Of a stretch of 64,000 nt of DNA, positions 23,306-23,405 are shown one piece after another (within the stretch, counting starts at the first letter, position 1; each line of letters starts with the position of its first letter). The notes under the pieces were generated by a model, which was not told the origin of the DNA, ran no database searches, and worked only from the letters and a program-made list of their open reading frames with translations. The stretch is from a virus. Its lineage: Duplodnaviria; Caudoviricetes. Location of the stretch: positions 6,276 to 70,275 of the IMG/VR virus record IMGVR_UViG_3300010275_000472, one strand, 5' to 3'. The position numbers and the translations under genes are program-made.

Positions 23306-23340
23306 TTGTGTTTCCTCCTGTTTCGTGTTAAACTTCTGGT

Positions 23341-23405
23341 GATAGTGGCTCAAAACTATCACCCTGTAAGCTCGTCGGTGTTCGCTGCACCGGCGGGCTT
23401 TTTGT
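23341..23405 (+). ncRNA. Candidate antisense sRNA (homologous to 36295-36361)
   Basis: Promoter TTGTGT-17-TAAACT with TG extension (23306-23334); two hairpins; U-tail; terminal stem needs G-U pairs only on this strand. Confidence 0.65.

Follow-up and report, generated by a model that had tools for sequence, protein, structure and literature searches.

Two Faecalibacterium prophages within the 64,000-nt stretch of viral DNA analysed here (the window) each carry a short element of two hairpins and a T-tract, raising the question of what this element is, how it might affect the genes around it and why two otherwise different phages should share it. An earlier note, made from the sequence of the window, had proposed that the two copies are homologous antisense small RNA (sRNA) genes which form a mobile module of ~65 nt and silence an early lytic gene in the lysogen.

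Mapping of the window by composition-based gene calling combined with PHROGs and Pfam searches resolved the two prophages (Table 1). Prophage 1 runs leftward, its early genes following the cro-like gene and its structural genes extending to ~7187, and prophage 2 runs rightward, its early and structural genes continuing as far as the window extends. Each prophage carries the element 1.5-2 kb downstream from its early promoter region, where it separates two co-directional early genes (upstream gene A and downstream gene B) and is oriented against them. The prophages had been called unrelated, and blastn bore this out, finding no common DNA except the cassette itself (23358-23408 versus 36342-36293, 51 nt, 90% identity). 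A megablast comparison of the prophage 1 early region with GenBank phages gave no match. The last 45 nt of gene A of copy 1 lie under the predicted RNA, with the TGA stop inside hairpin 1; in copy 2, the gene A reading frame crosses the terminator complement and has its stop codon in the hairpin 1 loop. The unrelated HTH_17 and zinc-ribbon proteins both end in the same ..NKKPAGA.. tail (23359-23400, minus strand, and 36296-36351, plus strand) because both reading frames run through the terminator complement, as do most A genes of the family described below.

Table 1. Positions of the prophage genes, the genes flanking the element and the parts of its two copies within the window.
Feature	Positions	Strand	Description
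Prophage 1 integrase	27795-28928	+	
Prophage 1 repressor	25470-25850	+	
Prophage 1 cro-like gene	25090-25338	-	
Prophage 2 CI/LexA-like repressor	32620-33258	-	
Prophage 2 Rha/antirepressor-like gene	34827-35495	+	
Gene A, copy 1	23359-23607	-	82-aa HTH_17/excisionase-like DNA-binding protein (PHROGs, Pfam PF12728)
Gene B, copy 1	23033-23305	-	90-aa small membrane protein; GTG start at 23303-23305 abuts the antisense -35
Gene A, copy 2	36022-36351	+	109-aa zinc-ribbon protein (Pfam zf-C2HC5, 3.7e-06)
Gene B, copy 2	36402-36803	+	133-aa protein, no family match; start codon 5 nt from the -35
Copy 1 predicted -35-like element	23306-23311	+	TTGTGT; 17-nt spacer to the -10
Copy 1 CCTCC	23314-23318	+	Complement of gene B ribosome site, in promoter spacer
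Copy 1 predicted TG-extended -10	23326-23334	+	TGtTAAACT
Copy 1 hairpin 1	23338-23363	+	GGTGATAGT / 8-nt loop / ACTATCACC; fold and covariation
Copy 1 linker		+	CTGTAA, between hairpin 1 and terminator
Copy 1 intrinsic terminator	23370-23398	+	GCTCGTCGGTG-TTCGCTG-CACCGGCGGGC; 11-bp stem with two U.G pairs
Copy 1 T5 tract	23399-23403	+	3' of the terminator stem-loop
Copy 2 predicted -35-like element	36397-36392	-	TTGTAA; 18-nt spacer to the -10
Copy 2 CCTCC	36388-36384	-	Complement of gene B ribosome site, in promoter spacer
Copy 2 predicted extended -10	36378-36368	-	TATGgTATGAT (TG-extended part TGgTATGAT, 36376-36368)
Copy 2 hairpin 1	36365-36336	-	GGGTGATGG / 12-nt loop / CCATCACCC; fold and covariation
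Copy 2 linker		-	TTTGG, between hairpin 1 and terminator
Copy 2 intrinsic terminator	36330-36303	-	Arms as in copy 1, loop TTGGCG; fold and scan
Copy 2 T5 tract	36302-36298	-	3' of the terminator stem-loop

The two copies, which span 23338-23403 on the plus strand and 36365-36298 on the minus strand, read back as previously described, including terminal stem arms that are identical in both. Folding of the element strand gave two clean hairpins for each copy, with energies of -37.6 kcal/mol (z -7.0) for copy 1 and -36.9 kcal/mol (z -5.9) for copy 2, whereas the gene strand reached only -24.9 and -23.0 kcal/mol, ~13 kcal/mol weaker, because the two U.G pairs of the terminator turn into A.C mismatches there. 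The second hairpin has the make-up of a Rho-independent terminator, with a stem of 11-14 bp and, on the element strand alone, a T5 tract behind it, and a simple scan for terminators called one on that strand at both sites. The terminator pattern matched twice in the 64-kb window compared to no matches in 100 shuffles.

Directly ahead of hairpin 1, each copy has its own predicted extended -10 promoter overlapping the ribosome site of the next gene, as the earlier note had claimed; the complement of that ribosome site falls within the promoter spacer. The copy 2 promoter was called by a simple scan (9/12 matches plus the TG extension), and the copy 1 promoter scored under the threshold of a simple hexamer scan. 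Comparison across the family described below showed that 62 of the 68 distinct upstream contexts had the motif TGnTAnnnT 2-5 nt ahead of hairpin 1, within a layout (TTG, 17 nt, TRTGnTAnnnT) of the Firmicute type. Conservation extended to positions outside the search motif: the three bases of the -35 TTG, at a spacing of 17 nt, were kept in 59, 51 and 51 of the 59 sequences, and the TG was preceded by T and then R, giving the TRTG motif of Gram-positive promoters. The non-consensus positions varied freely, and one subgroup showed a complete TTGACA-17-TGgATAAT promoter. Start sites placed by the usual spacing after the -10 element are predicted at ~23339-23342 for copy 1 and ~36363-36360 for copy 2, both within the 5' arm of hairpin 1, and the lower 3-4 pairs of that stem may therefore be absent from the RNA; these pairs showed little true covariation. 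On the sense strand of copy 2, the simple scan also marked a promoter-like site (36348-36377, plus strand; TTGAAA-18-TACCAT, 9/12, no TG) inside hairpin 1 and opposite the antisense promoter, which could drive gene B independently or could be a chance match.

Searches for homologues revealed that the two copies belong to a widespread family of elements in Faecalibacterium phages. A scan of IMG/VR with an exact pattern located the cassette on at least 108 contigs, with 42 distinct 75-nt variants among the matches listed, and the cultured Faecalibacterium phages FP_Lugh and Aster carry it as well. The FP_Lugh cassette lies between the early-operon genes gp08 and gp09 and points in the same direction as the repressor (gp03) and integrase (gp01) genes. 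A covariance model (R1) matched 28 of 91 Faecalibacterium species genomes, often two or three times per genome, and gave no match in 150 other sampled genomes of the same bacterial family searched with reduced-sensitivity filters. When genome contigs were scanned with a pattern that omitted the T-tract, 16 of 120 loci were true elements, and the remaining matches were mostly chance occurrences in high-GC Actinomycetes and myxobacteria. In Rfam 15, the whole window at the gathering threshold gave a tRNA (50917-50990) as its sole match, and permissive scans around both copies returned nothing credible, the best sub-threshold hits (E-values 0.84-4.6) being to unrelated families. A literature search on Faecalibacterium phage sRNAs, antisense RNAs and start-site data likewise found nothing relevant. 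Taken as modelled here, the cassette is a real, conserved and uncatalogued family of predicted sRNA genes, although the kind of regulator that it would encode is already known.

The alignment of this family also bears on whether the hairpins are maintained as RNA. The compensatory exchange of A-T for G-C in the first stem proved real, and the stems covary across numerous homologues. When 68 distinct homologues were aligned to the model, 95.3% of the cells were paired; compensatory changes occurred in 13 of 22 pairs, with covariation in both helices, and mismatches were strongly biased to G.U over A.C (147 to 4 for the terminator helix, 71 to 16 for hairpin 1 and 218 to 20 in total), counts which overstate the number of independent events because the sequences are related and the alignment (A3) was fitted to the model. 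The covarying pairs include 13-38 (GC 46, AU 16), 14-37 (GC 38, AU 8, UA 3), 64-78 (GC 57, CG 10) and 60-82 (CG 61, UA 4), and the FP_Lugh and Aster terminators show swaps of G-C to C-G and of C-G to U-A. None of 500 shuffles reached any of five covariation measures, and slid controls were far lower. Five covarying pairs were already present in a model-independent alignment made with MAFFT alone. RNAalifold run on the plain MAFFT alignment found the terminator only, because hairpin 1 was misaligned there, and the structure was instead written by hand and carried into the covariance model. A DNA palindrome, or an RNA made from the gene strand, would lack the G.U bias, which thus points to an RNA made from the element strand, the only strand on which the T-tract is found.

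These data speak against the idea that hairpin 1 (GTGAT..ATCAC) is a DNA operator through which a dimeric phage protein, such as the HTH_17 protein, controls the local promoter. Such an operator would be in keeping with the nearly invariant GTGAT/ATCAC core, with the start of the repeat 2-5 nt past the -10, a classic operator position, and with the fact that gene A often encodes a DNA-binding protein. Nevertheless, the spacing of the half-sites varies from 3 to ~12 nt, the stem positions covary rather than being fixed, the one-strand G.U bias of hairpin 1 fits an RNA and not a DNA palindrome, and the conservation of the core is equally explained by the use of its internal TGA as the stop codon of gene A. 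We consider an operator very unlikely and suggest that the core is plausibly held by two constraints, the gene A stop codon and pairing.

While the stems are nearly invariant, the loops take at least 36 distinct forms. The YUNR U-turn motif, known from antisense recognition loops, occurs in 83% of 36 distinct loops of the sense RNA compared to 41% in shuffles. In a separate observation, the terminator loop reads either TTGGCG or its exact reverse complement, CGCCAA, on unchanged stems (for example, L003 versus L005), the type of inversion that template switching inside a hairpin produces.

Analysis of the position of the cassette relative to its neighbours revealed a constant anatomy. In nearly all of 89 matches, the sense open reading frame of gene A ends inside or just before the element and that of gene B starts 26-29 nt past its 5' edge. 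At most loci the gene A stop lies 45-54 nt into the element, the commonest end being 45 nt in from the end of the T-tract, at a TGA complementary to the 3' arm of hairpin 1; in FP_Lugh, gene A stops ahead of the element. The ribosome site of gene B falls in the spacer of the antisense promoter and its start codon touches the -35. Thus, the predicted RNA has its complement in the A/B intergenic region and the 3' end of gene A, and leaves the gene B ribosome site uncovered, since that site lies within the promoter, upstream of the predicted RNA start. A coding cause of the conservation was considered and rejected: the compensatory substitutions in the stems change the protein tail, loops of different length throw the reading frame out of register, and the FP_Lugh gene A stops short of the element. 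Sense-RNA structures that might sequester the ribosome site and be switched by the sRNA were not consistent among loci, which counts against a riboswitch-like effect on gene B.

This anatomy upholds only part of the antisense reading in the earlier note. A self-contained promoter, hairpin and terminator do stand opposite early lytic genes, but the predicted RNA misses the ribosome site of the next gene. The analogy with P22 sar or P1 c4 did not hold, the predicted RNA running instead in the other direction, through the intergenic region and into the upstream gene, of which it spans the last 45-54 nt. Like sar, the RNA specified by the cassette would be small and antisense, start from its own promoter in a phage regulatory operon and end at an intrinsic terminator. 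The sar RNA, however, covers the ribosome site and start of ant, whereas the predicted cassette RNA starts past the -10 and heads away from the gene B ribosome site, so that only promoter DNA overlaps that site. The c4 RNA of P1 and P7, a structured antisense RNA of phage origin, owes its immunity specificity to its loops, and conserved stems with variable loops are found in the cassette as well. In contrast to c4, which is cut from a longer transcript, lacks a promoter of its own and acts further down the same operon, the cassette has a predicted promoter directly before its hairpin and terminator, and its putative target is the opposite strand.

Because the predicted RNA runs away from the gene B ribosome site, the layout is neither sar-like nor c4-like; as read from the sequence, it is closest to the pO-oop-tO unit of phage lambda. 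The lambda oop RNA is transcribed against the pR operon, overlaps the end of cII by 52 nt and ends at tO, its promoter extends into gene O, and its effect on cII has been ascribed to RNase III-dependent cleavage of the hybrid (PMC5869508). The cassette resembles OOP in specifying, in silico, a short untranslated RNA of <100 nt with its own promoter and intrinsic terminator, directed against an early lytic operon 1-2 kb downstream of cro, in overlapping the 3' end of the upstream gene to a similar extent (mostly 45-54 nt of gene A here) and in having a promoter that reaches into the start of the next gene. The differences are that the cassette belongs to phages of a Firmicute host and uses a TRTG-extended -10 promoter, that the overlapped gene encodes an HTH_17 or zinc-ribbon protein rather than CII, that the predicted RNA is shorter (~60 nt) and folds into two hairpins, and that the cassette is found between many different gene pairs. 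Comparison with Rfam models found no sequence or Rfam similarity to OOP.

Together, these results suggest that the 100-base cassette most likely makes a ~60-base RNA antisense to early lytic genes, and modelling of its fold, covariation and promoter leads us to regard a real antisense RNA gene as quite probable. According to the mechanism that we propose, a σA promoter with a TRTG-extended -10 would fire against the early lytic operon to yield an untranslated RNA of ~55-65 nt, in which a short linker would join a 5' hairpin to a strong intrinsic terminator. This RNA would be perfectly complementary to the polycistronic early mRNA from ~20 nt upstream of the gene B ribosome site to the last 45-54 nt of gene A. 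The mirror-image loops of the sense and antisense RNAs might first kiss, the contact might grow into a duplex of ~60 bp, and RNase III might then cut or destabilise the early message at the A/B junction, with convergent transcription from the antisense promoter possibly adding interference. By imposing a threshold, these steps would together dampen expression, leaky or early, of the genes located downstream of cro or the antirepressor, an effect comparable to that of lambda OOP on cII. For action in cis on the early mRNA in this way, the modelling leaves about an even chance.

The genes next to the cassette raise a different possibility, namely that its RNA is the antitoxin of a type I toxin-antitoxin pair in which the adjacent small membrane protein, gene B of copy 1, is the toxin. 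About one third of the B genes do encode proteins of 90-105 aa with two hydrophobic helices (families B2, B5 and B11), but most B genes encode soluble, unrelated proteins (DUF3846, HTH_36 and a family of ~456-491 aa), and the RNA does not overlap the coding region, ribosome site or 3' end of gene B, making this reading extremely unlikely.

The variety of these neighbours also confirmed the claim that the flanking genes differ and that the module is mobile. Gene A comes from at least five families, mainly zinc-ribbon and HTH_17, and gene B from at least seven, including DUF3846, small membrane proteins, the family of ~456-491 aa and HTH_36, in 29 A/B combinations. Several left-flank types pair with several right-flank types, four-gamete quartets included. 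With A and B drawn from so many families, the cassette is also a mosaic recombination joint, and the sequences indicate that its near-invariant terminator is, in addition, the apparent crossover point for the exchange of early-gene modules between unrelated Faecalibacterium phages. That unrelated phages have nearly identical terminators could reflect recent recombinational spread and not selection on the RNA.

Such shuffling raises the question of whether the cassette serves chiefly as a structural linker or insulator at the mosaic joint, the short RNA being a by-product without a regulatory role. It would then provide gene A with a stop region and gene B with a ribosome site and start, its one-way terminator would block stray antisense transcription, and it would persist through homologous recombination at the invariant core, which shuffles the modules. 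This explanation draws on the number of A/B combinations, on the recombination of flank types evident from the four-gamete quartets, on the cassette being the only DNA common to both prophages and on the unrelated A reading frames that read into it and gain the same tail. A linker, however, has no need of -35 and TRTG-extended -10 elements conserved at a set distance from the hairpin, or of compensatory changes in hairpin 1, and it needs neither the G.U strand bias nor the enrichment of YUNR loops. For a terminator that has only its own promoter to terminate, the simplest reading is an RNA gene, and we consider it unlikely that the cassette is mainly a linker. We somewhat favour, as the best overall explanation, an independent, OOP-like antisense sRNA gene that opposes the early operon and also serves as a crossover point.

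The coexistence of cassette variants suggests another way in which such an RNA might act. The early operon of phage contig L029 holds a copy 1 type and a copy 2 type (8471-8543 and 9645-9718, both plus strand), 1.2 kb apart and separated by a DUF3846 gene, indicating that the two types can coexist within one phage. The sRNA of a prophage could function mainly in trans, pairing with the early mRNA of co-resident or superinfecting cassette phages, with the loops setting specificity; the heteroimmunity of P1 and P7, determined by c4, is a model for such loop-set specificity. A duplex scan of the 64 kb found the best trans partner of each sRNA to be the sense copy in the other prophage, at -78.5 and -81.2 kcal/mol, compared to -107 and -111 kcal/mol in cis and a background of -31 +/- 7 kcal/mol; the other copy aside, trans targets within the window were generic GC-rich pairings only. 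The almost invariant stems, the different loops (at least 36 ways) and the presence of two or more variants in several genomes as well as in L029 are also in keeping with action in trans. On the other hand, most of the common complementarity falls within the terminator stem, a stable structure that is poorly accessible, neutral drift would also yield loop variation, and action in trans would extend the cis model rather than replace it. As the main mode of action, we judge it improbable.

Since unrelated phages keep nearly the same stems, a resident sRNA could pair with the early transcript of any cassette-bearing phage. In its broadest form, this idea would make the cassette an RNA immunity tag, with the loops defining compatibility groups and the core serving as a hotspot for module swapping, a proposal that we offer as speculative and rather doubtful. 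If it were true, regulation, exclusion and mosaic evolution would all be tied to one 100-base element. On the basis of the modelled duplexes, cross-regulation or exclusion between phages at the RNA level is possible.

Faecalibacterium is among the most abundant, health-associated bacteria of the human gut, and to our knowledge almost nothing is known of how its prophages decide between lysis and lysogeny. The predicted antisense cassette offers a concrete, testable regulatory part, present in about one third of Faecalibacterium species genomes and in Lugh and Aster, both cultured phages. The cassette represents an uncatalogued family of structured RNAs, for which a covariance model is ready for annotation, and places what appears to be an OOP-like design in Firmicute phages. 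In addition, it pinpoints a recombination joint and thereby helps to account for the mosaicism of Faecalibacterium phages.

Finally, the window contains other units with related features. A second putative antisense unit (30541-30653, plus strand) occupies the gap immediately preceding the prophage 2 integrase gene and is oriented against it, with a perfect TTGACA-17-TGgTACAAT promoter, a predicted RNA of ~75 nt and the terminator CGCTCTCGGTG-TTCCAG-CACCGGGGGCG-T5, whose top, GGTG-TTCCAG-CACC, resembles that of the main family. A homologue of this unit lies between gp02 and the integrase gene of FP_Lugh (L111, ~6650-6770, minus strand), and others are found at the viral loci L005, L052 and L031. 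Two further terminators with family-related tops lie in the junction region between the prophages: CCCGTCCATG-TTCCAG-CATGGGCGGG-T6 at 31702-31771 (plus strand), with an R1 score of 27.6 bits, and GCACGTTGGTT..AACCGGCGTGC-T5 at 29171-29246 (minus strand), with an R1 score of 20.8 bits.
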